Assembly: GCF_000027125.1 (NCBI RefSeq) | Contig: NC_017626.1 | Length of the DNA: 64,000 nucleotides | Direction: 5' to 3' (one strand) | Source: Escherichia coli 042 | GTDB taxonomy: Bacteria > Pseudomonadota > Gammaproteobacteria > Enterobacterales > Enterobacteriaceae | Shown: positions 25,438 through 63,202 of the stretch, in pieces | How positions within the stretch are numbered: position 1 is the stretch's first letter | How the letters are laid out: each line of letters begins with the position of its first letter | The notes under the pieces: model-generated | The model's input: only the letters and a program-made list of their open reading frames with translations | Databases searched by the model: none | What the model was told of the DNA's origin: nothing | Position numbers and translations under genes: made by a program

Positions 25438-25522
25438 GCCGAAGTGGCGAAATCGGTAGACGCAGTTGATTCAAAATCAACCGTAGAAATACGTGCCGGT
25501 TCGAGTCCGGCCTTCGGCACCA
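25438..25522 (+). tRNA. leuX: tRNA-Leu (anticodon CAA)
   Basis: GCCGAAGTGGCGAAATCGGTAGACGCAGTTGATTCAAAATCAACCGTAGAAATACGTGCCGGTTCGAGTCCGGCCTTCGGCACCA. It has a long variable arm, CAA at 25472-25474 and an encoded CCA end. Confidence 0.95.
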
Positions 25523-26975: not shown

Positions 26976-27243
26976 GCTATGGTAATGAGGTTATAGATAA
27001 GAGAGAATACTACTTTATCGCGGGTTTTTAGTGGCTGGCAGGTCTAGATGAGTAGAAAATTCAAGTAATCTACACTCACTCGACTTAAAGATGGGGCCTT
27101 TTAAAAGGTCCTGCTTTGATGCTTACTGGAATGATAACCGTCCTAATCGTTGGCGAGTTTGTTCCATAAGTCCTGAATCCATAGGTTTTCTCTCTCATTG
27201 ATATTAAGTAGCACCCATAAATTTTATTCAAGGATAAGAGATA

Positions 27244-29628
27244 ATGGCAAATTTTTCGGTAGCTGCGAGAACATTAATTCATTTAGGGGCGGAACTGATT
27301 ACCTCAGATGAAGTTGCTATAAATGAACTTGTTAAGAATGCTTTTGATGCCGAATCTAAACGGGTTAGGATAAATGTATTCATACCTATTTCGCATTCGT
27401 TAATAGATGACTGCCTTGCAATACTCGACAATAGTAAAAAAGAGGAAGCTCTTCAAGATGATATTTTTCATATAAAGAAAATGTTAATTGAAAGTGTTTC
27501 TGAACCTTCTATTGCAGCCCAAGTAGAAGAGTTGTTGCTAAACTTAACTTCAGATTCTAGCAAGGATGAAGCAAAAAAAATAGTCGAGTCGATAAACTAT
27601 ATAACAATCGAAGATTCTGGTTGTGGAATGGATTTAGCGACACTTGAAACGGTATTTTTGGCAATAGGCACTCCCTCTAAAGTAAACTCTGAAAGTACAA
27701 AAGACTTAAATAGAAAAATCCTAGGCAATAAAGGTATTGGACGTTTAGCAATGATGAGACTTGGGGATATTGCCAACGTTACATCTTGGGTTGAACAAGG
27801 TAGTGCCCATGAAATTGAATTCGACTGGCGAATGTTTGACGATCCTGAAAAAATAATCACCGATATTGAATTTGAAATAAAACCGACCACTTGTCCAAGG
27901 CCAACACCTTCAGGGACTGTAATAAAGATAACAGCACTTAAAAGCTCTTGGACTGAAGAAAAAGTTCGCGAAAAGCTCGTGGGTGATTTTTTTAGAAGGT
28001 TACAAAACCCATTTGTGATGTCATTGGATGAAGGTAGCTCCGATAACACAAAAAAAAATAAAAAGAATAGAACTGTAGGCTTTCCAATAGATGTTCATAT
28101 TAATGGAGGAACTCGAATACCTATCGAAGGTATGAAGAAAGTGTTAACAGATTTAGTTCAGGCTGATATGGAGCTCTGGTTTGACCCAAACGGGATTGGT
28201 GATACACCTGAAGTTATTCTCCGTACGAGTTTGACTGACTACCAACGTGGAAATGAACCTGAAAATACTAATAGAACAATAGAAGAAGTAACACATGTTT
28301 TAAATGTTAATTTTGAAGCACTTAAGAAAATTGGCCCCGTAAGAGCTACTATTAGATGGTTTAATAGAGAACGGTTACGCCAGCAAGCTACTTTGCATGG
28401 TAACTGGAAAGCAGCGAAGGCCGAATTAGATTTATGGTGTGGAGGAATAGCAATATATCGAGATGGTTTTCGCATTGGATTTTCTGGACAATCAACCGGC
28501 GAAGACTGGCTGGGACTAGATAGTTCTGCTCTTAAGAGAGGAGGTTTTGCTGTAAACCGTATTCAGACTGTCGGTGCGTTAGAGATTTCAAGAAAAGAAA
28601 ATCCCGGTTTGGTTGATAGATCTAATAGAGAAGGATTGATTGAATCACCAGAATCCAATCTTGTAAGAGATATGCTGTCGAAATTTGCTATTGATGAACT
28701 TCGTCGCTACATCGGTCATGAAGGGCAAGAAGAGAAGAAAGCACGTCTAAATGATATAGTTGAAAGCGCTCCTGCAACTATACGCGCTCGGATACTGCAA
28801 GCTGAGCAAGGACTCACATCTATAAGGTCTAAGGTTCCCGCAGATGTTCAAGAATCAGTACAATCAATCGCAAATAATTTACACTTTATAAAAAATGAAG
28901 TAACTCGTTTTGAAGAGGCTAGCAAACTAGCAACAGAGAGACGTGAGGATATTCTTGAACTTGCTGGTGTTGGAACCGTAATGTCTGGTGTACTACATGA
29001 GCTCACTAGGACAACAGGCCACACTCGACAGCTGTTACAAAAGTTATCTAAAGATGAGTCTCCTGGTACTAAAGCTTTATTAACGAAGCTAGATTCGGAA
29101 ATTAAAGCGATCAATACGCGACTTCGACAGTTAGATCCTTTAACACCTTCTGGAAGGCATCGCAAAGAAATATTTAATTTGTCAGCATTGCTGAATACTA
29201 TATTAGAAGGGTATGGAGCTCGCTTTGAACGGCATAATATAATTCCAGAATTCAAAATCTCTGGAGTTGATGATACTCAACCTGTCGAAGTAAATATGGT
29301 ACGTGGTTTTGTTAGCCTTGCAATTGAGAATTTAATTACAAACTCGGTTTATTGGGTTCAGCAGGGGGGGAGAAGTGATCGTCGTATTACTTTAGAACTA
29401 GATGCAGAATCTAGGACATTAACTTTGCGTGATAATGGGCCAGGTATTTCTCCTGCAGATAAAGACAGAATTTTCACTGCAGGATTTACAATGCGACCTA
29501 AAGGGCAGGGTTTGGGTCTTTTCATTGCAGCTGAAGTGGCTACCTATCATGATGCGAGGCTTTTGTTGGACTCTGCTGATGAGGATGGCCGATATAGAGG
29601 TTTTGTCTTGGAGCTTCCAAAGGAATGA
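27244..29628 (+). CDS. Cytoplasmic dual-GHKL protein: N-terminal MORC/Hsp90-like ATPase plus C-terminal histidine-kinase-like module
   Basis: 794-aa ORF. N-terminal Bergerat motifs are E28-LVKN32-AFDA, D124-SGCG128 and G161-NKGIGRLA. The C-terminus has an H-box-like SGVLH585ELTRTTG, an N-box ENLITN700SVYW, G1 D730-NGPGI and G2 GQGLGL. I see no obvious TM segment. Confidence 0.6.
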   Translation: MANFSVAARTLIHLGAELITSDEVAINELVKNAFDAESKRVRINVFIPISHSLIDDCLAILDNSKKEEALQDDIFHIKKMLIESVSEPSIAAQVEELLLNLTSDSSKDEAKKIVESINYITIEDSGCGMDLATLETVFLAIGTPSKVNSESTKDLNRKILGNKGIGRLAMMRLGDIANVTSWVEQGSAHEIEFDWRMFDDPEKIITDIEFEIKPTTCPRPTPSGTVIKITALKSSWTEEKVREKLVGDFFRRLQNPFVMSLDEGSSDNTKKNKKNRTVGFPIDVHINGGTRIPIEGMKKVLTDLVQADMELWFDPNGIGDTPEVILRTSLTDYQRGNEPENTNRTIEEVTHVLNVNFEALKKIGPVRATIRWFNRERLRQQATLHGNWKAAKAELDLWCGGIAIYRDGFRIGFSGQSTGEDWLGLDSSALKRGGFAVNRIQTVGALEISRKENPGLVDRSNREGLIESPESNLVRDMLSKFAIDELRRYIGHEGQEEKKARLNDIVESAPATIRARILQAEQGLTSIRSKVPADVQESVQSIANNLHFIKNEVTRFEEASKLATERREDILELAGVGTVMSGVLHELTRTTGHTRQLLQKLSKDESPGTKALLTKLDSEIKAINTRLRQLDPLTPSGRHRKEIFNLSALLNTILEGYGARFERHNIIPEFKISGVDDTQPVEVNMVRGFVSLAIENLITNSVYWVQQGGRSDRRITLELDAESRTLTLRDNGPGISPADKDRIFTAGFTMRPKGQGLGLFIAAEVATYHDARLLLDSADEDGRYRGFVLELPKE

Positions 29629-31475
29629 TTATGGATATTCAAAAGTCATTTACTGAATCAAAAATTTTAAAAGTAGCGATCGTTGACGACGATTTGTCCG
29701 ATTTAATTACTATGGACGATCTGAATACTATAGACAAGGATATTGCCAGTTTGCTTGGTGATCCATCCGATCCTGATTGTGAAAGTTACCATGAACTACT
29801 AGCATCTGAAGGCTATGATCTTGACGAAATAGAAGATCTTGCTCAACCTCTTTCAAATAAATCAATTAGAGAAAAAGCTCCTGAGCGTCTAAAAAATGCG
29901 GCAAATAAAATTATCGAATTTCGTTATGATAACGCCAAGCCAATTAGACGTGTTAAACAATTACTACTGGAAGCTGGCATTTTAGAGGATAATATTCATT
30001 ATTATTTTAGCCCTGAAATACCTAATGAAGAGTTTTATGATCTTTTAGTGATAGATTACTTCTTGGTAAAAAATTCCTCCAAGCATACTTTACCTTTTAT
30101 CAAAAAAATACTCTCAACTCATGAAAAGGCACCAAAGCCTTTACAAGTTATTCTGATGTCGACTTATGAGGCAGAGTTAAAAGCAGAATTCAGGAATATT
30201 CGTCCCGAGATAAGAACTTCAAGCTCAAGAATGAGAATCATGAGCAAACCAATGTCTGATGATGATTTAGTATACTGGCGCTCTGCTTTGTTCCAGTTAT
30301 CTTCAGATCGACAATTTGTCGATGCAGTAGAAAAATTTGTTACTGAAACAATAAGTGGTTTTCAACATGCTGCACAAGAACAAGCTAAAAGATTATGGGA
30401 GCTTGATCTTCAGGCAATGGATATTCTCCATGAAGCTGCAACATCTGATAATGATGATTTTTGCCGCTATGTTGAAGAATGTCTAAGTAGACAATTATTA
30501 ACGGCTCTAGAAGAATGCTCTGGTATAAGAAAATCATTAGGTGTTTTAGGTGAATCATTAATAAAACATAGAGCTAACAACGTAATTGCGCCTGTTACTG
30601 AAATTGGTGATTCGAGGGCGGCAATTAGAACACTAATGAGGAGTATGGAATGGCGTGGGGGAAATACCCCTAGCATGACAGAGTTTAAAGACCCTAAAGA
30701 CAGAGCAAAGTGGATTCAGAAAAATCTGAGATTTGGAATGGTACTAAAATCACCAGATGATAAAAGATGGCTTAATTTAACTCAAGCGTGTGATCTTGCA
30801 CAAACAAAAGAGGATAATTTAAATTCGGTATCTCTCTTGCTTATTAGTGGTTCCTATGCTCGGCCAGTTGGACGTGAGAATGGGCAATCATTAGTGTATT
30901 TGAACACATCATTATCTGATGCAGGTAGTGAGGTTTTGTGTTGGGATGTACGTAATGTTCAAACGCCCTCAATATTTGATTTTGCTCAAACGTTTTATAA
31001 TGGCTGGTCAATTACTGGAGAGCTTCGTCTAGACCAGGCTCAAAGTATAGCTGCTTTATATAGTTCTCGAACTTTAAGGGTTGGTCTTCAAAAAAGGCTA
31101 AGTAGCTGGTGTCTTGATGGTAAAGCTTTATTCATAAACAAATTAAATAACAGCGCTCCAAGTGATAAAATCGAGGGTACGACTATTTCTGGTCATGCGA
31201 TGAATCGTGGTAAACCCGACGAAGTACATATCGATAAAGATAGCATGATAAAGCTTCAAAGAGATTTTCCTAATAGTATTAATAAAATATCTCTGAAATT
31301 ATATATGGGAATGCAGCTAAAGCCTGGTTCAAAAAACCAAGAAGAAGGTATTTTGATTTATTGTGCTGAAAAGCCGGAGAATATAGAATCACTTCGTAGG
31401 GCTATTAATGATAATGATTTTTTAAATCGTGATGTTAATCAAAATAAAGTGGTAATAGCTCTATGGCATAAGTGA
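29625..31475 (+). CDS. Divergent receiver(REC)-like N-terminus fused to an unknown ~400-aa C-terminal domain
   Basis: 616-aa ORF. Its ATG overlaps the upstream stop (ATGA), and an alternative ATG at 29631 has better AAGGA spacing. REC-like landmarks are LKVAIVD21D22D23, YDLLVID144YFL, LQVILMS179T180 and IMSK208P. I recognise no output-domain motif. Confidence 0.5.
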   Translation: MIMDIQKSFTESKILKVAIVDDDLSDLITMDDLNTIDKDIASLLGDPSDPDCESYHELLASEGYDLDEIEDLAQPLSNKSIREKAPERLKNAANKIIEFRYDNAKPIRRVKQLLLEAGILEDNIHYYFSPEIPNEEFYDLLVIDYFLVKNSSKHTLPFIKKILSTHEKAPKPLQVILMSTYEAELKAEFRNIRPEIRTSSSRMRIMSKPMSDDDLVYWRSALFQLSSDRQFVDAVEKFVTETISGFQHAAQEQAKRLWELDLQAMDILHEAATSDNDDFCRYVEECLSRQLLTALEECSGIRKSLGVLGESLIKHRANNVIAPVTEIGDSRAAIRTLMRSMEWRGGNTPSMTEFKDPKDRAKWIQKNLRFGMVLKSPDDKRWLNLTQACDLAQTKEDNLNSVSLLLISGSYARPVGRENGQSLVYLNTSLSDAGSEVLCWDVRNVQTPSIFDFAQTFYNGWSITGELRLDQAQSIAALYSSRTLRVGLQKRLSSWCLDGKALFINKLNNSAPSDKIEGTTISGHAMNRGKPDEVHIDKDSMIKLQRDFPNSINKISLKLYMGMQLKPGSKNQEEGILIYCAEKPENIESLRRAINDNDFLNRDVNQNKVVIALWHK

Positions 31476-31513
31476 TTTGATTTATTGCTAATTTATCAGG
31501 TGTATTATTTTCT

Positions 31514-31550
31514 CAATGTGAGCTAATTATTTCTTTATTAGCTCACATTG
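31514..31550. terminator. Perfect 14-bp-stem hairpin between the two convergent operons
   Basis: CAATGTGAGCTAAT (31514-31527), a 9-nt loop, then ATTAGCTCACATTG (31537-31550), with AT-rich flanks on both sides. Confidence 0.6.
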
Positions 31551-31623
31551 ATATCCATTTATGTTAAATGATAAGGGGAAATTGTACTATAAAATATAGA
31601 CCAGATTAATTTACCCCTTCTTT

Positions 31624-32463
31624 TTATTTATGGCAAATTGCGCATGAGCCTCCGCCTTCATCTTCCCCATAAATTTCATCAATATCAATGAGAGTCTCAC
31701 CAGGGCGTAGTGGGTTAATGATTTTTTTCGCTTTGAGTCTGGCTTGCCGCTTTTCAAAATCAGTGACAATTTGAGCAATTCTTTCAGGCTCCTCAAGTGA
31801 CTCTAGTGATTCACCTTTAGTCCAAGTAAAGGGAGAACCATGTTCAATTGCATTTTTTTCATATCGTTTAGCTTCTTCAAATGCCTCTGGGTGACGCTCT
31901 TTTAATCTTACCCACTCAATCTTTTGTTGGAAGAAGCAAAAAGTACAGCCGCTACGTGATCGCCATTCATAATATTTTGGAAGACCAACTCCTGATGAGT
32001 CAAGAATATCCATAACACCTTTCCGATCTATTCCGGCATCTCTAAATGGTAAACTAATAGTTAAATTTGCATTTTTCGAACTATATCCTTCACGGTAATC
32101 TTCGTCTGCTCTTATTGCTACATAGCTTGTAACTTTATCACCAGCATTAAGCATCGGACGAACCCACTGTTCGAAGGGCGCGAGTTTTAACTGACGAGTA
32201 CACCAACGAGTCTGCGGCGAGGGTAGAAAATGATTATATTCACGTAACCAGAAATCAAAACCACGTCTAGGGTTTAGTCTGGCAATTGGTTTGCCTAAAA
32301 ATCCTTCTAATCGCCCCAAAAACTCATAGACTTCAGGTAATTCTTTACCTGTATCAGTAAAGAAATAGTCGATATCTAACTCGGGGCGTGTCTGGCGCAT
32401 GAAAACAGCAAGTGCAGCACTGTCTTTACCCCCAGAAATACCAAGTACATGCTTTTCAGTCAT
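31624..32463 (-). CDS. sspD: PP-loop ATP pyrophosphatase, PAPS-reductase-like (SspD/DndC-like)
   Basis: Track ORF 31624..32481. The Met at 32463 has a GAGG Shine-Dalgarno and gives MTEKHVLGISGGKDSAALAVFM (SGGKDS PP-loop). C-terminal cysteines are CTFCFF and CAICHK. Confidence 0.7.
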   Translation of the reverse strand: MTEKHVLGISGGKDSAALAVFMRQTRPELDIDYFFTDTGKELPEVYEFLGRLEGFLGKPIARLNPRRGFDFWLREYNHFLPSPQTRWCTRQLKLAPFEQWVRPMLNAGDKVTSYVAIRADEDYREGYSSKNANLTISLPFRDAGIDRKGVMDILDSSGVGLPKYYEWRSRSGCTFCFFQQKIEWVRLKERHPEAFEEAKRYEKNAIEHGSPFTWTKGESLESLEEPERIAQIVTDFEKRQARLKAKKIINPLRPGETLIDIDEIYGEDEGGGSCAICHK

Positions 32464-35400
32464 TCTTAACCTCAACATCATGCTGAGCGATTTTAATACA
32501 AGCTTTACCTAATGCAGCCATTATAATATCTGGGTTTAATCCTTTTCCAGATAATGTTCTAATTAACTCACCGGCGAGGTTGTCAATCTGATGGTTGAAT
32601 TGCTCAGGTATACTGAATTCGTGTTTGAATGTTTTCATTTCTGAACCAGCTCCAATAACCACTGCAAATGCCTCGCTTGATGGTTTTCGTCCTTGGATCG
32701 ATACTAATGCTTCGGATTGGCGAAACCGCAGTGCAAAATTGGCTATTTCCATAAGTGCTAAATCAATATCTCGATCATTCCAGTCTCTTGGAGGCTTGTT
32801 TGCAGCTAGGCTGAGTATACCTTCTATAGAATAATGACTACCATCGTACGTAGCTAAACGTGTTGAAAAGGCATCTTGCCGAAGTTCGCCAGTGATACCG
32901 GATAACGTTTCAGCACGTTTTCGTAGTGTAGATAAGTCATCTTTATTAGCATTCAGAGCTTTTAGCATTCTTGATGCAAATTGGTCTAAGAGTTTGTCAT
33001 AGGCACTCCAAAGTTCTTTTACTGGAGCCTGTAATGCATCAACATAATTTTTCCCACTTTCTACATTTAGAGCCGCGGCTAAATCAATAAATAAAACTTT
33101 ATGAGGATCGCTAGCTTTTAATAGTGTATCTCGTACCTTCTTCGCATTAGATGAAAGTCTCGCCGTCCTTTGTGTCCAATTTGGGAGTCCAACAATCATG
33201 GCAACTAGACTTCTGGCAGCTTCTAACGGTTCAGCTGAATTAGACATGAGACCAATAGAATCAAGAAGTTTACCAATTCCTACTAGAATCTTTTGTTTTT
33301 CATCATCAATTACAATCCACCGCAAGGAAAAACGTTTTTCATCCTGCAAGTATTCATCAATATCTGCATCAGTAAAAGTAGGAATAAATAATCCATCTTT
33401 ATAAATAGCAATATTACTTTTAGATGCCAGAAGGAAGGCCATAAATATTATCGGTATAACACCTTTTTTTAAACCAAATGGAGGTTTAGCCCAAAGGGTA
33501 TGAATATCAGATACTGATATCATTTGATTTTTATTTTTAATGAAATCATGCGTTTTCTTCCAAAGACCATAAAACGACGAATGCTTGTCGCTGACCGCAG
33601 GAAGAAAATGATAATACCCATCATGATGCTTCGCATACAAGCCGGTACGATGGAGAATCGTTTCATATAGGCCGCGTGAGGCAGGATATCCCTCAATTCC
33701 AAGATGGAGTTCACCCTCATTTTCTAGCATTCGATATAACAATTCTTTCCTGGCTTTTACGCTATTGCTGGATAAATTATCACGATTAACTAATTCACTC
33801 CATAACCTTGGAGCTTTGTAGTAAATATTATCTGCAAGAGAGGATGCAATTGATGATAAAGTACCTTTAGGTTCCGCCTGAGCAGAATCTATACACCATT
33901 CCGCAGTCGCTAATGCCTCTGCTAACTGTTCTTCTAATGTTGATTGCGTTGCACTTATCCTTGCTTGGACTTCTCTTCGTGCAACAGCATCACCTTGTAA
34001 TTCATGTCCACGTTTAGTTTGGACTATTTGAAGTGCTAGGAGTTCGGCACCTAAATCTTCTATGCGCAGGTAGTTATGTGGAATCCCGGCAACAATGGGC
34101 CATGGCTTTGAACGAGAAGCATCAGCACAAATTATTTTAGCTTGTTCTTCATTTACATTTCTTTCAGGAAGTGCCAGAAGAAATAATCCAAACTCTCCGT
34201 TACGTGGCTGGAACTCTTCTGAATATTTTTTTACCTCGTTAAGGTGACAAAGTGCAATATTCATCCAGCGAAAAGTACCAGTTTGATGGTAATGCCTTTT
34301 TGCAATTACAGGATAAAGATTAGCAATTTTATTCAGTTGACTAAAATCTGTTCCAAGCATGGTTGCACGTGATTGTGCAACGGCTTGGTCAATATTAAAA
34401 TCACTTCCTTCAAAAACAGACCATGCCCCGGTATGTTTTTTGAATATGATAACACGCCATTTAGAAAGATCTTCGAGTGCGGATCTAATATTTTCAATAG
34501 AAGTATTCAAGAATAATGATTCTAGTATGCTTGTTTCAGCGGTCAATCCTGAACCATCTTTGAAAAGGTCAAGTATTGCAATACATTTAATTAAATCAAT
34601 ATGCAATATATTATCAGATTTTGCCTCCGCACGTTCTACAGCGTCTACCGCTTGTGCCCAACGATGTCCATCATTAGAGGCCAAAATTAATTGTTCAAGA
34701 TTTGCTCTTAAGTAATCGAAATAGTTTGAGGGAAGATACCAAGTAGCCTCTTCAAATGTGGTTAGATTGAGATAGTTTTGAAACCCGAAAGGTTCAGAGG
34801 ACGAGAGAAAACCAAAAGTTGAACGCTCGTTCTGTCCAAACTGACGTTTTGATATAGGTCCTAATAAAGCAGCCATTACCGGGTGTAAAGGCCAACACTT
34901 GGATAATGCATAATCATATTGCTTTCCAACCATTGGGCGTCGATCATAAATAGCATCCGCGACTACTTGCGCTACTTTTTGAGTGTATTTGGGTCTTTTT
35001 TTAACATCTAACGCTTTACCTATAAGTTCAACAACTTCATCACTCCCTGCAACTAAGGGAATATCAGCATAACGGCCTTGGATTTTAGTCCACTCTTCAC
35101 GAGTTTCAAGTCCAAGTCGAACAGCATATTGTCCAAAAGATTGATGTAATATACCTAAGATAATGACTTTACCATTTGTACGTGCTGCAGATTCAGCAAG
35201 CTCTTGGTAAAAATAAATATCATCGCCATTTCCTAAAGCTGATGCTTCAAGGAACTTACCTAGCTCGTCAATGATAAGCAAGGTACCATCTAACTTCGCT
35301 TCATCTGCAGCACTGCATATGTGTTTAATAAGTAATGATGCTGATTTTTTATAATCTTTATCACTACCACAAACATTATTCAGAGTTTGCGAAATTTGTT

Positions 35401-35788
35401 GGATTATGCTACCTCTGCGGCCAATAACTGGAAGTATTAACCATCCTTTTTTAACTTGGAATGCTTTATCAAAATCACTTTGTGAATCGACATTTAACAA
35501 TGACCTTGCTTTTTCACGTAGAGCTTTGTTAGGTGATAATGAACTTGCAAGAACTAACGCTAATGATGATTTCCCACTTCCATACGGACCAGTCCATGTG
35601 AAAGCTCGCTGTTGGCTATTCAGAACCTGCTTGGACATGTTTTCAAGAACGCTTTGTGCCGTGCCATTGCATACATATCCATCAAGCGCATCTTCGCGGC
35701 CAAGATCAGCATCAATACGGATGGAACGTTGGTATTGTCTCGCAATGCGAACCTGTTCTGAAAGAAGGTTTTTATTATGTTTAGTCAT
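32456..35788 (-). CDS. sspC: Large P-loop ATPase (DUF499/BrxC-like; SspC-like)
   Basis: Track ORF 32456..35800 starts at a TTG; the ATG is at 35788. Walker A is GPYGSGKSS and Walker B is LLIIDELGK. The ~1110-aa size fits DUF499-type ATPases. Confidence 0.65.
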   Translation of the reverse strand: MTKHNKNLLSEQVRIARQYQRSIRIDADLGREDALDGYVCNGTAQSVLENMSKQVLNSQQRAFTWTGPYGSGKSSLALVLASSLSPNKALREKARSLLNVDSQSDFDKAFQVKKGWLILPVIGRRGSIIQQISQTLNNVCGSDKDYKKSASLLIKHICSAADEAKLDGTLLIIDELGKFLEASALGNGDDIYFYQELAESAARTNGKVIILGILHQSFGQYAVRLGLETREEWTKIQGRYADIPLVAGSDEVVELIGKALDVKKRPKYTQKVAQVVADAIYDRRPMVGKQYDYALSKCWPLHPVMAALLGPISKRQFGQNERSTFGFLSSSEPFGFQNYLNLTTFEEATWYLPSNYFDYLRANLEQLILASNDGHRWAQAVDAVERAEAKSDNILHIDLIKCIAILDLFKDGSGLTAETSILESLFLNTSIENIRSALEDLSKWRVIIFKKHTGAWSVFEGSDFNIDQAVAQSRATMLGTDFSQLNKIANLYPVIAKRHYHQTGTFRWMNIALCHLNEVKKYSEEFQPRNGEFGLFLLALPERNVNEEQAKIICADASRSKPWPIVAGIPHNYLRIEDLGAELLALQIVQTKRGHELQGDAVARREVQARISATQSTLEEQLAEALATAEWCIDSAQAEPKGTLSSIASSLADNIYYKAPRLWSELVNRDNLSSNSVKARKELLYRMLENEGELHLGIEGYPASRGLYETILHRTGLYAKHHDGYYHFLPAVSDKHSSFYGLWKKTHDFIKNKNQMISVSDIHTLWAKPPFGLKKGVIPIIFMAFLLASKSNIAIYKDGLFIPTFTDADIDEYLQDEKRFSLRWIVIDDEKQKILVGIGKLLDSIGLMSNSAEPLEAARSLVAMIVGLPNWTQRTARLSSNAKKVRDTLLKASDPHKVLFIDLAAALNVESGKNYVDALQAPVKELWSAYDKLLDQFASRMLKALNANKDDLSTLRKRAETLSGITGELRQDAFSTRLATYDGSHYSIEGILSLAANKPPRDWNDRDIDLALMEIANFALRFRQSEALVSIQGRKPSSEAFAVVIGAGSEMKTFKHEFSIPEQFNHQIDNLAGELIRTLSGKGLNPDIIMAALGKACIKIAQHDVEVKND

Positions 35789-36671
35789 AAGCCTTTCCAA
35801 GCATGTTCAATTTAATTACTTCTGTTTCTGATGTTTTACGATGAACCTGGCGTAAACCAGCTGTATCAGTCCATATAAATGAACCTTCAGTTAACTCTTC
35901 TAATGCGAATAATCGTTCTGCAATAGAGTCTTCATCGAGCTTAAATACTCTACCCGGAGAACCGTCCCCATATGCAATTGTTTCGAAGGATAATGAGCTG
36001 AGATTTAGGGCCTTACGCTCCCAATAATCGATCAGAGCATAAGCAAATACACCATCAGACAAAGTAATCTTTGGACCTCGACGAAATGAAAAGTGTCCTT
36101 TTTTTTCTTCAGCTAGTAAACCTAATTCACCAAGCATAGGTTCGGCAAAGTCTTCAGGAGTGGTTCCACTCGACCGCGGTGCATAACTACGCAAACATGT
36201 CTCAATATCTCGAGAAAGTGTCATTGGTGATAGTTTTCTCCCAGGACAACATTGCGTAGCATAGTCAGCTAAAAGAGCCCGGAGGTCTTCTTGTGTAAAA
36301 GATGAAGAAACAACATGGTTAAATAACCAGTACCAAGTTGTCGAGCGTTCTCCTTTTCCTGAAAGCTTCCAATGGCTAAGCCATGCTGTCGAGGGATGCT
36401 CTGAATAAGGATCAAGCCCATGTTCGCTAAATATTTTAATAGCAAATTCTGTAAGTTTGAATTTACCATCCTCTTCTCGCATTACTTCACAGGCGAGTGC
36501 CCAATGCTTGATTGATGCGACCATGTTTTTGCCTACACCAAATTTGGCAATGGCCTCATCATTCGAAAAAACCGATTTGTCAATAGAACCATCCGGCGCT
36601 GCATAACTGCAGGTTTTTTTTAACCACATTTGTCTTAGTGGGAAGGTCTCGTGACCTGAAAAGTGAGCCAT
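35781..36671 (-). CDS. sspB: DUF4007-family protein (SspB-like)
   Basis: 296-aa ORF. The N-terminus MAHFSGHETFPLRQMWLKK matches my recollection of the DUF4007 signature. It is the first gene of the three-gene overlapping operon. Confidence 0.65.
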   Translation of the reverse strand: MAHFSGHETFPLRQMWLKKTCSYAAPDGSIDKSVFSNDEAIAKFGVGKNMVASIKHWALACEVMREEDGKFKLTEFAIKIFSEHGLDPYSEHPSTAWLSHWKLSGKGERSTTWYWLFNHVVSSSFTQEDLRALLADYATQCCPGRKLSPMTLSRDIETCLRSYAPRSSGTTPEDFAEPMLGELGLLAEEKKGHFSFRRGPKITLSDGVFAYALIDYWERKALNLSSLSFETIAYGDGSPGRVFKLDEDSIAERLFALEELTEGSFIWTDTAGLRQVHRKTSETEVIKLNMLGKAYD

Positions 36672-37502
36672 GACTTATCCTAATGCGATAACAACTTTGT
36701 ATAAGCTGATTGTACAGGAACTGGAGAGTTTCACCAGTGGCGGCTTTTGGACATCATTGGGGTGGCGTAGCGGTTTTTTTTTTATTTTTTTCGTTAAAAT
36801 ACATATTGTTAATTGTTTTTTATTGCGGAGGGGAACTGTCTATATCTTCTCATGCATCGGGATTTTTAACAGGCCTGAGCTGGCATGTTCTACCGTTTCA
36901 CACAGAAAGGAACAGTTAGTTTCAAACGGATACTTATCAATCAGTGGTGTGAGAAATGCTAAGAGTGGGAAACGCACTTAATTTTATGATTTCTTAGTGA
37001 CCAGTTTTTAACCATGAGCTAATCTTAAAATCTGATTTTTATCAATGAGTTAATGTTGATGTACTATGCGGCAATGAATGAAGTGTATTGCCATTCCGAA
37101 TTTTTGCTCATTTTTTAGCCATTTCCATACTTTTTTGCGTGAATATTTTATGAACAATGTTCCTTTCATAACTTATCTGTCTCAAATGATACGTTTGGAG
37201 TTTACAATTACTAAATATTTAATGTAAGTGGGAACAGCTATTTTTTGTTCATATTAGCTCCCAGCAGCAAAAGATGATGTAATTCATCCGGTGCAGAGAT
37301 AATATAGGAATGGATAATCTGGAGAGCGACTCTGCAGGCTGATATTGCGGTTTTGCGGCAAGTTTTTGGCATCCGCTTCTACGCCAAATACCTGAAGTAG
37401 GAATGGATGCGTTAGCAGCATACATCCGGATCTGCGCGGGGAATAGCCGGAAACGGCTATCCCTACCACAATAGCTAACTTTGTAATAGTGCCCTTTTAG
37501 GC

Positions 37503-59161: not shown

Positions 59162-60106
59162 TCAAGGGTACGGGTCCGCTTCGTTTGATTTGCGTGTTTT
59201 TAACAATTTTAAAACCCAGACATACTGTTCCGGATGTGGCCCCACCAAAATTTCCACTGTTTTGTTCATTTGTCGGGCAATCATTTTATTGTCCGCGCTG
59301 GCAATGCAAGCATCCATTGGTGGCCGAATTTCAATAGTCAGGAGATGTTTTTTTTCATCATAAACCGGGAAAAGTGGTATAATCATAGCCTGACTGATGT
59401 TCATCAGACGTCCAATGATTGGTAATGTCGCTTTATAGGTCGCAAAAAAATCAGCAAATTCACTGTATTCAGGACCATGATCCTGATCTGGGAGGTAATA
59501 TCCCCAGTATCCCTGGCGTACTGACTGAATAAATGGTTTTATCCCATCCTCCCGGGCATGTAAGCGCCCCCCGAATTTACGCCGTACTGAATTCCAGACA
59601 TAATCAATCACTGAATTTCGTTGCTGATGAAACATGGCGGCCATTTTTTTTCCCTGAGCTGCCAGCAACATTGCAGGAATATCCACGCTCCAGCCATGGG
59701 GAACCAGAAAAATCACATTTCTATTATTGTGTCGAATTTCCTCAAGAATTTCGAGGCCTTTCCAGAACACTCGTTTCTGGAACTTTTCCGGACCACGAAT
59801 TGCCAGTTCTGCCATCATCACTATGGATTGCAATGCTGTGGCAAACATTTTGTCGACAATTATTTCCCGTTCTGTATCACTCTTTTCTGGGAAACAAAGC
59901 GATAAATTAATCGTCGCCCTGCGACGAGCTTTTTTGCTCAATCTGCCCGCCCAACGCCCTATTTTTGCCAAGACAGGATCTCTGAATGAAGGGGGAAACA
60001 TTGAAATACCTGCAATCATTCCCAAAAGGAACCATGTAGACCAGTAAACAGGGGAAAGGTAATTTTTCTTAAATTCAGGAATAAACTCAGATTTATATTT
60101 TTTCAT
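59162..60106 (-). CDS. msbB2: Lipid A late (myristoyl) acyltransferase, LpxM paralog
   Basis: 314-aa ORF collinear with LpxM as I remember it (IPEF...YW, LVPHGWSVDIPAMLLAAQG, GYWGYYLPDQDHGPE). It is last in the shf-capU-virK-msbB2 order. Confidence 0.85.
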   Translation of the reverse strand: MKKYKSEFIPEFKKNYLSPVYWSTWFLLGMIAGISMFPPSFRDPVLAKIGRWAGRLSKKARRRATINLSLCFPEKSDTEREIIVDKMFATALQSIVMMAELAIRGPEKFQKRVFWKGLEILEEIRHNNRNVIFLVPHGWSVDIPAMLLAAQGKKMAAMFHQQRNSVIDYVWNSVRRKFGGRLHAREDGIKPFIQSVRQGYWGYYLPDQDHGPEYSEFADFFATYKATLPIIGRLMNISQAMIIPLFPVYDEKKHLLTIEIRPPMDACIASADNKMIARQMNKTVEILVGPHPEQYVWVLKLLKTRKSNEADPYP

Positions 60107-60170
60107 TATTTAGTGCGAATGCCTCTACCAAAATTATCATTACTGTTTTATTCAGAGAATACATCAAACC

Positions 60171-61121
60171 TTAATTTAAATTCTGATGTTCTGAGTGTAC
60201 AGGATATGCATCCAAAGAGCGGATAGTAGTTTCATGGATATAATCCAGCAAAGCGTATCGTTTTCGGTACTCAGAGCGTTTTTTACTGGCTATATCGCTT
60301 AGCGGCTTTCGAATCACCTGGGTTGGTAATCTGTACCAGTCACCACAGGTTTTTCCTGCTACAGACTCCCAGAAATCACTATAGACCGCAACAAAGGTTT
60401 TGCGTTTCTGATACCAGTATCTCAATTGCCGGAAAACATGACTGTGCTCACTGACTGCCAGACACTCAGAGATATTGCAAGCTTTCATCAACGCACAAAA
60501 TGCTTCAAAAATAATCCGTTTTGGGAAAATCCCATAACAGGCCCGGGTTGCGCACCGAATAACATCAGGTCCGGTATTTTTAGGGGCTCCCTGTAATCCG
60601 CCAATAAAAGCAATGTGTCCATTTTGAGTCAGAATGACTGAAAATGTTAACCGGGCAATAACTGTTTTATTGTAAAACAATGACAACATCAACTCTCCTT
60701 CCCGGTCAAAACCACTGGGAGAACACTGGATATCAAAATTCTCTCCATCTTTCCCGATGAATTGGACTAATGATACCGATTTTTGTGGAAACAAAAATTT
60801 AGAATATTTTTCTGGCAAATTTTGCACAAAGCGATAATGCTCAAGAATATATTGTCCACGGGTCCAGGCGCGCCCCCCTTTATGCAAATAAGGGCGATGA
60901 ATTCTTGCTGGCAACGTGGGGTGTATTGCCAGAATATCCTCAATGCACGGCAAGGAACGCAGTTCATAATAATATCGAATACTGACAACCGGATTTATAG
61001 AACATCGCAAAATGTACATGAACCGAAATTTTCTGTGTTCCCACTTCCCCGGTAGTGAATCTGAGGAAAAAATAATCCTTTTAAGGAAACCGATAAATGA
61101 TAAGTTACTTATAGAAAACAT
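60171..61121 (-). CDS. virK: VirK-family protein (DUF535)
   Basis: 316-aa ORF between the glycosyltransferase and msbB2, the position and size I recall for Shigella/EAEC virK. Confidence 0.75.
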   Translation of the reverse strand: MFSISNLSFIGFLKRIIFSSDSLPGKWEHRKFRFMYILRCSINPVVSIRYYYELRSLPCIEDILAIHPTLPARIHRPYLHKGGRAWTRGQYILEHYRFVQNLPEKYSKFLFPQKSVSLVQFIGKDGENFDIQCSPSGFDREGELMLSLFYNKTVIARLTFSVILTQNGHIAFIGGLQGAPKNTGPDVIRCATRACYGIFPKRIIFEAFCALMKACNISECLAVSEHSHVFRQLRYWYQKRKTFVAVYSDFWESVAGKTCGDWYRLPTQVIRKPLSDIASKKRSEYRKRYALLDYIHETTIRSLDAYPVHSEHQNLN

Positions 61122-61125
61122 ATTG

Positions 61126-62214
61126 TTACGTTTGCTTCGCTAATGTGAGTATTTTTAACGCAGTTTTATTAATATCAAACCGCTCTTCTATATCCTGTTT
61201 TGCCAGGCGAGCCATCTGATAAAAACGCCCAGGGTCATTAAAAAAATCATTCAGGGCGCACATCCATGCGTGCTTATTACCTGCTGGTAACAATGTCCCG
61301 GTCTGGTTGTTCTGAATAACCTCAGGGATTCCACCAATCTGAGTGGCCACTACAGGCACAGAAAATGCCGATGCTTCTGCCAGCACCATACCAAAAGATT
61401 CGTTTTCTGAAGGCAGAACCACCAGACTGGCAACCCGATATACGGGGGCGGCAGGAAAAACATTGTCAGCAATAAAAACATCATCATGCATGCCCATACT
61501 GTCAATCTGATACTGTAAATGTTCCCGCAGTTCAGGTGAACCAGACCCCACAATCAACCAACAGAACTGTCGTCCATTCATTTTTAAATGGAACAGTAAA
61601 TTCAACATAAATTCGTGCCCTTTTTCCGGGCGCAACATTCCTACCTGAGCAATTACGGGGCATCCTCTTCGGGACGCCAGCCAGGAAAGAACACTCGGAG
61701 GCAAACTGTTTCGGGAATCAACGTATAATTCCTGGAAATCAAAGCCAGGAGGCACAACAGTAACCCGAGTTCGACATCCTTCCTGCTCCAGATGTGTCTT
61801 CATATTTGTTCCGGGAACAATCACCTCATCGCAAAAATGATTTATTGAAAAAAATTTTGTTTTTCGTGTCAAATATGTCTTTTGCCTGATAATTCTGAAT
61901 GGATGTTTCCAGGTAAAAAACCGTACCAAACCAACAATATTACTATCATGTCCACTGTGACAAACGATTGCATCGGGCTGAAAACTATGAACTATTCCGA
62001 GTAATCTCCATACAGTAGGAATGTGAAGACTGTTTCGAAATAACGCGAATGTGATATCAATTCCAAACTTACTGGCTTCAAAAGCAATTTTGCTGTTCTC
62101 CCTGCAGACAAGCAGAACTGAATGCCCCATTTTCTTCAGGGCCTTCATTTGAGCAACAGCCTGTAATTCCTGACCACCTATATTCGGTGATGATTCCGTA
62201 AATAGTATATTCAT
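61126..62214 (-). CDS. capU: GT4-family glycosyltransferase (CapU/RfbU-like hexosyltransferase)
   Basis: 362-aa ORF with a C-terminal E-x7-E-type motif (ENESFGMVLAEA). Confidence 0.8.
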   Translation of the reverse strand: MNILFTESSPNIGGQELQAVAQMKALKKMGHSVLLVCRENSKIAFEASKFGIDITFALFRNSLHIPTVWRLLGIVHSFQPDAIVCHSGHDSNIVGLVRFFTWKHPFRIIRQKTYLTRKTKFFSINHFCDEVIVPGTNMKTHLEQEGCRTRVTVVPPGFDFQELYVDSRNSLPPSVLSWLASRRGCPVIAQVGMLRPEKGHEFMLNLLFHLKMNGRQFCWLIVGSGSPELREHLQYQIDSMGMHDDVFIADNVFPAAPVYRVASLVVLPSENESFGMVLAEASAFSVPVVATQIGGIPEVIQNNQTGTLLPAGNKHAWMCALNDFFNDPGRFYQMARLAKQDIEERFDINKTALKILTLAKQT

Positions 62215-62216
62215 TA

Positions 62217-63038
62217 TTAGTCATCCGGTAATCTTGGCCCCTTATGAAGGGCCAGCAACGATGAAAAAAACGGTGTTGTATAATAAAAAAGTCGTCTTTT
62301 CAGCCATACGCAATTTTCCCGTTCCTTGGTGCTTATTCTTCCTATCCGTGTAGTTCCTTTAGCAGGAGCATTCATTCTTCTTTCTGTTGTATATAAATAA
62401 TGGAATCCAAGTTCTTCAGCGATCTGAATATAATCCTTGTTATAATAACCTTCCGGCCAACACAAATGTTTACTGCATTTTCCTGTCATTTTTTTTAAAT
62501 ATTCTCTCCCGCTCAGTAAGTCCTGCCGAAGATGTTTACACTGTTCTTCTCGTGAAGTGAACTTTTTATCCCAACGTGTATGAGTATGTGTATGAACATG
62601 AAATTCGACCAGACCAGATTGCAACATTTCGTTCACTTCAGACCAGCGAAGCATAACATTATCAGCATTCCCGGTTGCTATTTGATGTTCGCAATCGCGA
62701 TGAGAATATTCCTTTCCAGGAGAGTGACGAACCGGACCATTTCCAATAAAACTGGTAATTAAAAAAATATGTGCCTGGAGATTAAACTCGTTTAATAAAG
62801 GATATACCTGAAACCAGTTGTCAAGGTATCCATCATCAAATGTCAACATAACGCTTTTACGGGGAAGTTTTCCGCCCCGATAAAAAAACTCCAGTTCATC
62901 TGATGACAGTGTTTTCCAGTTGTTTTCAGCCAACCATTTCATTTGTTTCCGGAATGTCTCGGGAGAAAGTGTAACCAGTCCTGGGCAATGGCTGACATGA
63001 TGATACATTAATACCGGAACATGATTTGCTTTAAACAA
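62217..63038 (-). CDS. shf: Polysaccharide deacetylase (NodB-homology, IcaB-like) Shf
   Basis: 273-aa ORF with the NodB motifs LTFDDGY and HTHTH. It is the first gene of the four-gene cluster. Confidence 0.8.
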   Translation of the reverse strand: MFKANHVPVLMYHHVSHCPGLVTLSPETFRKQMKWLAENNWKTLSSDELEFFYRGGKLPRKSVMLTFDDGYLDNWFQVYPLLNEFNLQAHIFLITSFIGNGPVRHSPGKEYSHRDCEHQIATGNADNVMLRWSEVNEMLQSGLVEFHVHTHTHTRWDKKFTSREEQCKHLRQDLLSGREYLKKMTGKCSKHLCWPEGYYNKDYIQIAEELGFHYLYTTERRMNAPAKGTTRIGRISTKERENCVWLKRRLFYYTTPFFSSLLALHKGPRLPDD

Positions 63039-63202
63039 AATGCCTCCTCCGTTTAAAATTTAAAGTTTCTGGCACCCAGTAAGTAGAGATAAAAGGAAAG
63101 CCTAATAAAGTTGGTGAACTTTATATACTACTAAATCAAACATCAACAATTTATAAACAATAATATATTATCATATCTTTTAAAAACGGCTCACTAAGAA
63201 CC

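Follow-up and report, generated by a model that had tools for sequence, protein, structure and literature searches.

A kinase–receiver gene pair accompanies the sspBCD operon of an Escherichia coli genomic island and is a candidate third partner of Ssp DNA phosphorothioation

Results

An sspBCD operon faces a kinase–receiver operon

Here, we analysed a 64-kb stretch of the Escherichia coli 042 chromosome (NC_017626.1; henceforth the window) that harbours an sspBCD operon, i.e. three co-directional genes in the order B-C-D on the minus strand (36671-31624), together with a second operon that converges on it and encodes a kinase and a receiver protein. As judged from profile matches and motifs, the trio is almost certainly SspB, SspC and SspD and makes up an intact DNA phosphorothioation operon, whose predicted activity is to write the phosphorothioate expected of an Ssp module, at CpsCA, into a single DNA strand. 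A first-pass annotation of this DNA had taken the trio for an sspBCD-like set rather than BREX type 4, which the PADLOC profile scores decide in its favour, and had treated it as a stand-alone block. It turned out to be one half of a conserved five-gene cassette, the other half being the kinase–receiver operon (27244-31475); the E. coli cassette is compact (∼10 kb, five genes). We incline to the view that the two operons form a unit and propose the kinase–receiver pair as a third Ssp partner, besides SspE and SspFGH.

Coordinates and lengths of the genes are given in Table 1. SspB, the DNA-nicking and targeting subunit, matched the Pfam family DUF4007 (4.8e-90) and the PADLOC SspB model (6.9e-115), with no rival PADLOC model, and its residues 3-254 aligned with the solved structures 6juf/6lb9 of characterised SspB proteins (E = 1.8e-26). 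The large P-loop ATPase SspC scored 1451 bits with its PADLOC model and possesses a Walker A (GPYGSGKS, residues 67-74) and a Walker B motif (LLIIDE, residues 170-175), within which G67, G70, G72, K73, S74, D174 and E175 were invariant across 14 diverse loci. SspD reached 466 bits with the PADLOC SspD model; its PP-loop (SGGKDS, residues 10-15) and its cysteines 88, 173, 176, 274 and 277 were likewise invariant across 14 loci. All five genes of the cassette are full-length relative to their homologues and have their catalytic residues intact. PADLOC found neither SspE nor SspF/G/H among the neighbours of the locus; the respective models do work, as SspE was detected in one comparison locus (L018) and SspF/G/H in two others (L023 and L024). 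As a side observation, the sole PDB sequence match of SspD was a 270-aa chain named 'PptA' (21fy_C; E = 2e-8), and our literature search retrieved no paper explaining this chain.

The converging operon lies between an integrase gene and sspD, and RefSeq names its products 'sensor histidine kinase' and 'hypothetical protein'. Pfam matches in the kinase are HATPase_c_3 close to the N-terminus and a C-terminal HATPase_c. The N-terminal half forms a MORC/MutL-type module, composed of a GHKL Bergerat fold and a second (S5-like) domain, and resembles the ATPase of the BbrUII/HgiDII restriction enzymes (7e-19), while the C-terminal half is a full histidine kinase with H585 and the N, G1, F and G2 boxes. 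Invariant across 14 loci were E28/N32/D35, D124xGxG, G161xKGIG, H585-E586-x-x-R589, N700, D730xGxG and F744. The second protein contains a CheY-type receiver domain, of which the acidic pocket D19-D21, the phospho-acceptor D142, S177 and K206 were conserved in 14 loci; His-to-Asp phosphotransfer from the kinase to this receiver is predicted. In its C-terminal region, a core of G369, C387-D388, R466 and R483 was invariant over two phyla, and the last ∼120 residues differ between clades. PADLOC 2.0 holds no model for the receiver protein. The kinase stop codon (TGA, 29626-29628) is followed after 2 nt by the receiver start codon (ATG, 29631), which has AAGGA as its Shine-Dalgarno sequence; were the ATG at 29625 used instead, the two genes would overlap by ATGA. 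Either way, the kinase–receiver operon appears tightly coupled as well.

The pair resides in Ssp loci of distant bacteria

The pair sat in an sspBCD locus in all 23 independent loci whose kinase was at least ∼30% identical to that of the window. These loci were collected via receiver homologues (at 76, 57 and 44% identity), kinase homologues (40-48%) and annotated plasmid or chromosome records (30-37%); a further seven came from a scan of genome contigs with an alignment of the receiver family, a procedure that needs exact peptide patterns. The 23 loci cover E. coli, Pectobacterium, Pseudomonas, Xanthomonadales, Salmonella, Citrobacter, Stenotrophomonas, Acinetobacter baumannii, alpha- and betaproteobacteria, and Chloroflexota, i.e. 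the association extends over three proteobacterial classes plus Chloroflexota. We found no homologue of the pair at ∼30% identity or above outside an Ssp locus.

The gene arrangement varied considerably. Kinase and receiver genes converge on D-C-B in E. coli, Pectobacterium, Pseudomonas, Citrobacter, A. baumannii and a betaproteobacterium, the A. baumannii record showing the cassette layout of the window. Xanthomonas, Pseudoxanthomonas, Stenotrophomonas and Methylorubrum have the order B-C-D-A-kinase-receiver, and Rhizorhabdus has kinase-receiver-XRE-A-B-C-D. In Agrobacterium, kinase-receiver-SspF-G-H converge on D-C-B-A, and in Polaromonas SspF-G-H-kinase-receiver converge on D-C-B. On a Chlorohelix plasmid (Chloroflexota) with the order A-B-C-kinase-receiver-D-SspFGH-like, the pair is inserted within the modification operon itself, between sspC and sspD. 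The Salmonella locus holds the pair together with SspE, and the pair is the sole partner in E. coli, Pectobacterium, Pseudomonas, Xanthomonadales and A. baumannii.

Pairwise divergence was strongly correlated within each of the two modules, namely between kinase and receiver (r = 0.91) and among SspB, SspC and SspD (r = 0.91-0.96), and less so across modules (r = 0.36-0.64; ∼0.6 for the kinase). The two modules thus appear to travel together and to be exchanged at times, which is how modification and partner modules look.

Besides, an SspD alignment served to sample 80 metagenomic loci, whose SspD is 62-91% identical to that of the window. Among these, 13 showed the pair, 12 SspE and 16 SspFGH, and in 47 none of the three was seen, proportions that are rough given that many of the contigs are too short to judge. 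In the sampled SspD clade, the pair is therefore roughly as common as SspE or SspFGH.

More distant relatives, at 24% identity, are found on Campylobacter plasmids, where kinase and receiver (340 aa) genes accompany one for a Dcm methyltransferase and Ssp is absent. On the Campylobacter jejuni plasmid p14991B (L028:1-4454), for example, a 732-aa kinase and the 340-aa receiver converge on Dcm, and 16 Campylobacter plasmids carry this module. Some loci contained additional genes of interest. Directly upstream of the kinase gene, the Ssp locus of Pseudomonas xantholysinigenes has a gene (L007:6303-7430) whose 375-aa product combines a ScoMcrA_N with an SRA_ScoMcrA domain. As restriction by ScoMcrA-type enzymes depends on phosphorothioate, this product may be an additional reader of the mark. 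In two metagenomic loci (L034:9048-11411 and L035:11897-14260), full-length but very divergent SspE-like genes with 25-26% identity to Salmonella SspE were located between sspD and an SspH/G block; these may be members of a separate SspE subfamily found alongside SspFGH.

Gene overlaps are a family property

The first-pass annotation had highlighted two near-identical 8-nt overlaps at the gene junctions of the trio, each with a purine-rich Shine-Dalgarno sequence inside the upstream gene, and direct reading bore out both. On the minus strand, the sspB stop codon (TAA, 35783-35781) overlaps with the sspC start (ATG at 35788), as does the sspC stop codon (TGA, 32458-32456) with the sspD start (ATG at 32463), and Shine-Dalgarno-like purine stretches precede sspC (GGAAAGG, 35798-35792) and sspD (GAGG, 32473-32470; spacer 6 nt). 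The starts that RefSeq, through the Prokaryotic Genome Annotation Pipeline (PGAP), assigns in 100%-identical genomes agree with this reading (proteins of 296, 1110 and 279 aa). Other in-frame starts lie upstream (TTG at 35800; ATG at 32481 and 32478), and 8-nt overlaps are therefore one of several possible readings, albeit the one with the best support. The two octamers are indeed alike, but their likeness says little because ATG and the stop codon, T-(A/G)-(A/G), fix six of the eight positions in any such overlap, leaving two middle bases free (match p ∼1/16).

Comparison with other loci places these overlaps in context. An 8-nt sspC/sspD overlap of the form (A/G)TGnnTGA was present in eight of nine intact related loci; at the sspB/sspC junction, the overlap measured 8 nt in three, 11 nt in five and 4 nt in one of the nine, and 11 nt also in a further related locus with a disrupted sspC. 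In a Dokdonella metagenome-assembled genome (L014:2279-5582), sspC seems disrupted, with a match spanning residues 7-705 and an early stop, and the other five genes look intact. Among the 80 metagenomic loci, where downstream starts were set by a simple heuristic and counts are accordingly approximate, the sspC/sspD junction (n = 67) overlapped by 4 nt in 23, 8 nt in 17, 1 nt in 6 and 11 nt in 3 cases, and the sspB/sspC junction (n = 48) by 4 nt in 19, 8 nt in 10, 1 nt in 6 and 11 nt in 5 cases, the remainder being mainly gaps of at most 12 nt. As overlaps are common at both junctions, tight coupling is a property of the family, and the two 8-nt overlaps of the window are one common variant. 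It is plausible that such overlaps impose a stoichiometric coupling of SspB, SspC and SspD.

Sulfur supply and regulation

As the first-pass annotation had claimed, no cysteine desulfurase is linked to the operon: none is annotated in the 64 kb of the collinear E. coli CV839-06 that correspond to the window. This, however, is no peculiarity, and neither are the overlaps, since 23 of 55 complete metagenomic sspBCD loci had no linked sspA (32 had one) and overlaps of 4 or 8 nt are normal. Among relatives of the cassette, the Xanthomonadales and alphaproteobacterial versions include sspA, and those of E. coli, Pectobacterium, Pseudomonas and Acinetobacter lack it; sspBCD with sspA unlinked, or with IscS in its place, is described as typical in the literature. 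E. coli possesses iscS. The suggestion that IscS is used agrees with published findings on further sspBCD operons of E. coli: a plasmid with only sspBCD of E. coli 3234/A supplies the mark in E. coli JM109 (PMC8092258), SspA is 'often replaced' (PMC12914056) and IscS is able to stand in (PMC8092258, PMC12914056). By analogy, housekeeping IscS most likely supplies the sulfur here. The window likewise contains no DndB-like regulator, which had been remarked upon; this observation holds and carries no meaning, given that DndB is a component of Dnd, not of Ssp.

Genomic setting

The window is E. coli chromosome, 99.94-99.96% identical to and collinear with E. coli CV839-06, and the block occurs in nine of 5,426 complete E. 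coli genomes, in copies that are at least 99.9% identical. The GC content is 36-42% over ∼27000-37500, compared with ∼51-55% in the left chromosomal flank and ∼45-48% in the mosaic DNA on the right; the sspBCD operon occupies a low-GC island inserted at the leuX tRNA gene (Table 1). Pectobacterium has an integrase 71% identical to that of the island, in an equivalent position. As for attR, a second copy of the leuX 3' end (25499-25522) was not found in the window even when as many as 3 mismatches were tolerated, and the far boundary of the island has either decayed or lies past the 64 kb.

Table 1. Features of the island and of the five-gene cassette, in order of position in the window
Feature	Position	Strand	Basis or remark
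tRNA-Leu(CAA), leuX, island integration site	25438..25522	+	ARAGORN; RefSeq order ahr, tRNA-Leu, integrase
Tyrosine integrase, 417 aa	25722..26975	+	Pfam Arm-DNA-bind_3, Phage_int_M, Phage_integrase
MORC-like GHKL ATPase fused to histidine kinase, soluble, 794 aa ('HK-like', HEF_HK family)	27244..29628	+	
Receiver-domain protein, uncharacterised C-terminal output, 614 aa ('RR-like', Response_reg_2)	29631..31475	+	
Perfect hairpin, 15-bp stem, 9-nt loop	31513..31551		In the 148-nt gap between receiver gene and sspD
sspD, PAPS-reductase-like ATP pyrophosphatase, 279 aa	31624..32463	-	PADLOC SspD 1.3e-140; Pfam PAPS_reduct
8-nt overlap ATGACTGA, sspC stop / sspD start	32456..32463	-	Direct reading; PGAP uses same starts
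sspC, large P-loop ATPase, 1110 aa	32456..35788	-	PADLOC SspC E = 0, 1451 bits
8-nt overlap ATGACTAA, sspB stop / sspC start	35781..35788	-	Direct reading; PGAP uses same starts
sspB, DUF4007 protein, 296 aa, DNA-nicking/targeting subunit	35781..36671	-	Pfam, PADLOC, solved structures
IS110 transposase remnant, right edge of low-GC block	37267..37374	-	PGAP pseudogene in identical genome 190693

The hairpin between the converging operons probably acts as a bidirectional terminator: the RNA fold of 31470-31630 reached -38.1 kcal/mol (z = -4.1), and none of 200 shuffled sequences was as stable. Further to the right (37-64 kb), the window is a mosaic of insertion sequence (IS) elements and sugar-uptake genes. 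At ∼59200-63100, it includes genes for a polysaccharide deacetylase, capU, virK (with an internal stop) and lpxM (msbB2-like), here chromosomal and with IS3-family elements on either side; this type of module is normally found on virulence plasmids.

Discussion

The kinase–receiver pair was published in 2021 by Bellieny-Rabelo, Pretorius and Moleleki as a two-component-like element linked to restriction–modification (R-M), with 91.6% linkage in 644 regions and an enrichment near R-M genes, especially those for C5-methyltransferases and Vsr (PMC8011034). The authors related the kinase to paraMORC ATPases, speculated on a regulatory role over R-M systems and reported abundant neighbour groups with 'no known domains' (PMC8011034). 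The text of that study makes no mention of phosphorothioation, DUF4007, PAPS reductase, Dnd or Ssp, kinases, receivers, GHKL and MORC likewise go unmentioned in a 2024 re-examination of how phosphorothioation works (PMC10853773), and our literature searches found no named Ssp partner that matches the pair. In the searchable literature, there is one hint at an Ssp link of the pair, which does not establish it. The sspBCD part of the cassette is an ordinary operon of a familiar type, and the pair was published with no reference to phosphorothioation.

The gene identities, the intact motifs, the folds of the recognisable domains and the strict genomic linkage of the pair are established. We consider it likely that the pair is functionally coupled to Ssp. 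That it acts as a defence effector or sensor and not as a regulator comes close to an even call, falling slightly short of one. A defence role is favoured because relatives of the pair partner with methyltransferases, because the kinase ATPase resembles that of restriction enzymes and because many lineages, this E. coli included, have no other candidate for reading the mark; likewise, the Dcm-linked relatives and the likeness to BbrUII/HgiDII fit the role of a partner for a DNA-modification module. More tentatively still, the cassette may constitute a phosphorelay-gated, phosphorothioate-linked immune module, in which the MORC-like ATPase would read the mark or its absence and signal by His-to-Asp phosphotransfer to a receiver whose output domain falls outside any described family. 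In the mechanism that we propose for the cassette, SspD, SspC and SspB would be translated from a single tightly coupled transcript. The ATPase would bind DNA and read the presence or absence of the phosphorothioate mark set by SspBCD; DNA sensing is proposed since this ATPase resembles MORC, MutL and the GHKL-bearing BbrUII/HgiDII enzymes. Mark reading would then set kinase autophosphorylation at H585, and phosphotransfer to D142 would act as an on/off switch for the receiver output, whose target would be either DNA without the mark, such as that of a phage, or the infected cell.

Several points weigh against this proposal. The ∼400 C-terminal residues of the receiver protein gave no Pfam, PADLOC or PDB sequence match and contain no recognised nuclease or effector domain. 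A weak Foldseek resemblance of this region to MazF/PemK (E = 0.03-0.4, target-normalised TM score 0.52-0.67, 7 of the top 18 hits) was unsupported by profile comparison (hhalign probability 0.13; no Pfam match). The sample of loci was small, and part of it had been gathered by searching with the pair, which is why the 23 of 23 indicates that the pair depends on Ssp, not the converse, and defence genes cluster for reasons besides shared function. Moreover, the pair and SspFGH occurred together in six of the 13 metagenomic loci with the pair, and in view of its co-occurrence with SspFGH and SspE, the pair could serve these effectors, or the modification itself, as a regulator or helper and not be an effector. 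The block is rare in E. coli, being carried by only nine of the 5,426 complete genomes. Finally, consensus scans of 26.9-37.5 kb yielded 24 promoter-like sites versus 32 expected from shuffled sequence and nine terminator-like sites versus 7.6 expected, so that neither promoter nor terminator calls exceeded the shuffled expectation.

The main rival account, which we regard as unlikely, holds that the pair is no effector and instead regulates the modification, sensing the state of the DNA or the supply of sulfur or nucleotides and tuning the activity or expression of SspBCD in a DndB-like function. It would explain the partial modification of CCA sites, and defence would be left to SspE or SspFGH where present. 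In keeping with it, the pair shares an operon or locus with SspFGH in alphaproteobacteria and Chloroflexota, as in the six metagenomic cases above, stands with SspE in Salmonella and lies between sspC and sspD in Chlorohelix; besides, the receiver lacks a recognisable nuclease, and a regulation of R-M is what the original authors speculated on (PMC8011034). On the other hand, the receiver has no recognisable DNA-binding output domain either, and where the pair is the sole partner (E. coli, Pectobacterium, Pseudomonas, Xanthomonadales, A. baumannii), a purely regulatory pair would imply that widespread mobile cassettes possess a regulated mark and lack a reader for it. The N-terminal ATPase, moreover, resembles true restriction enzymes, and the modules are partly shuffled in the manner of restriction and modification modules. 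Improbable, in our estimate, is that an orphan SspBCD marks DNA for epigenetic or redox purposes and that the pair, as a defence or signalling element in its own right, just happens to share the island. In favour of this account, 84% of 2,678 sspBCD loci had neither sspE nor sspFGH, with other partners having been raised and some loci perhaps being true orphans (PMC8092258); defence islands gather unrelated systems, distant relatives of the pair work with Dcm (PMC8011034), and the operons converge in the window, hence are separately transcribed. This is set against an adjacency retained in 23 of 23 loci despite rearrangements, across phyla and replicon types, including in-operon insertion and collinear single-operon layouts, a cross-module co-divergence of r ∼0.6 for the kinase, and the want of any homologue at ∼30% identity or above outside Ssp loci in our searches.

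That the cassette is a silent or decaying passenger of a mosaic island, inactive in this strain, we deem very improbable. Its rarity in E. coli, the IS110 remnant and the many IS elements around it, as well as the missing attR copy, would suit a passenger, yet the five genes are full-length and every catalytic residue is intact; the nine E. coli copies, at 99.9% identity or above, differ too little to reveal decay. Membership of the trio in BREX type 4 or Dnd, lastly, is refuted as far as sequence evidence goes. There is a genuine relationship, in that BrxC, BrxP and DUF4007 are homologous to SspC, SspD and SspB (PMC12839542, PMC12914056), and SspC does match the BrxC model (1.2e-106), as SspD weakly matches BrxP (7e-11) and DndC (6e-6). 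However, the Ssp models score far higher (SspC, 1451 versus 356 bits for BrxC; SspD, 466 versus 39 bits for BrxP and 23.5 bits for DndC), TIGR03183 reached just 20 bits against a cut-off of 290 bits, and DUF4007 and PAPS reductase are encoded by separate genes, not by the fusion typical of BrxP. In addition, PglZ, BrxL, DndB, DndD and DndE are all absent from the annotation of the 64 kb.

Our proposal that the pair is a third Ssp partner bears on whether the ∼84% of sspBCD loci without a known restriction partner are true orphans, and supplies a concrete candidate partner. If true, this partner class would explain part of these presumed orphans, including the locus present in most A. baumannii global clone 2 genomes. 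The question extends to the clinic, as the same layout occurs in A. baumannii, for which an Ssp system was reported in 62% of genomes, with sspE missing in 5,518 of 5,530 cases (PMC12421847). Two-component phosphotransfer within an R-M-like system would be mechanistically unusual, and bacterial MORC-type ATPases would gain a defined input and output.

How does the cassette compare with known systems? With the Ssp systems of E. coli 3234/A and Vibrio (SspABCD-SspE; SspBCD/IscS-SspFGH), it shares the same three proteins in B-C-D order and a tight operon, a desulfurase that is unlinked and replaceable by IscS, and the location on a mobile island; it differs from them in having neither SspE (DUF262/DUF1524) nor SspFGH and, in their stead, a MORC-like kinase and a receiver as neighbours. 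BREX type 4 (BrxP-BrxC-PglZ-BrxL) is likewise a writer of phosphorothioate and has homologues of the ATPase, the PAPS reductase and DUF4007, whereas the window lacks PglZ and BrxL, keeps DUF4007 and PAPS reductase separate and matches Ssp profiles with several-fold higher scores. Unlike MORC/paraMORC proteins and BbrUII/HgiDII, the kinase ends in a histidine kinase transmitter rather than in a nuclease or chromatin reader, and its output is placed in a separate receiver. The closest counterpart of the pair itself is the published HEF_HK/Response_reg_2 element, likewise a soluble kinase with HATPase_c_3, a dimerisation and histidine phosphotransfer (DHp) helix with His-Glu and HATPase_c, next to a divergent receiver (PMC8011034). 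That study set out from Pectobacterium genes, and the closest non-E. coli homologue of the present pair is from Pectobacterium too, albeit from another species. Yet, while the published pair was associated with classical R-M, chiefly C5-cytosine methyltransferases with Vsr, the modification partner in all 23 loci described here is SspBCD.

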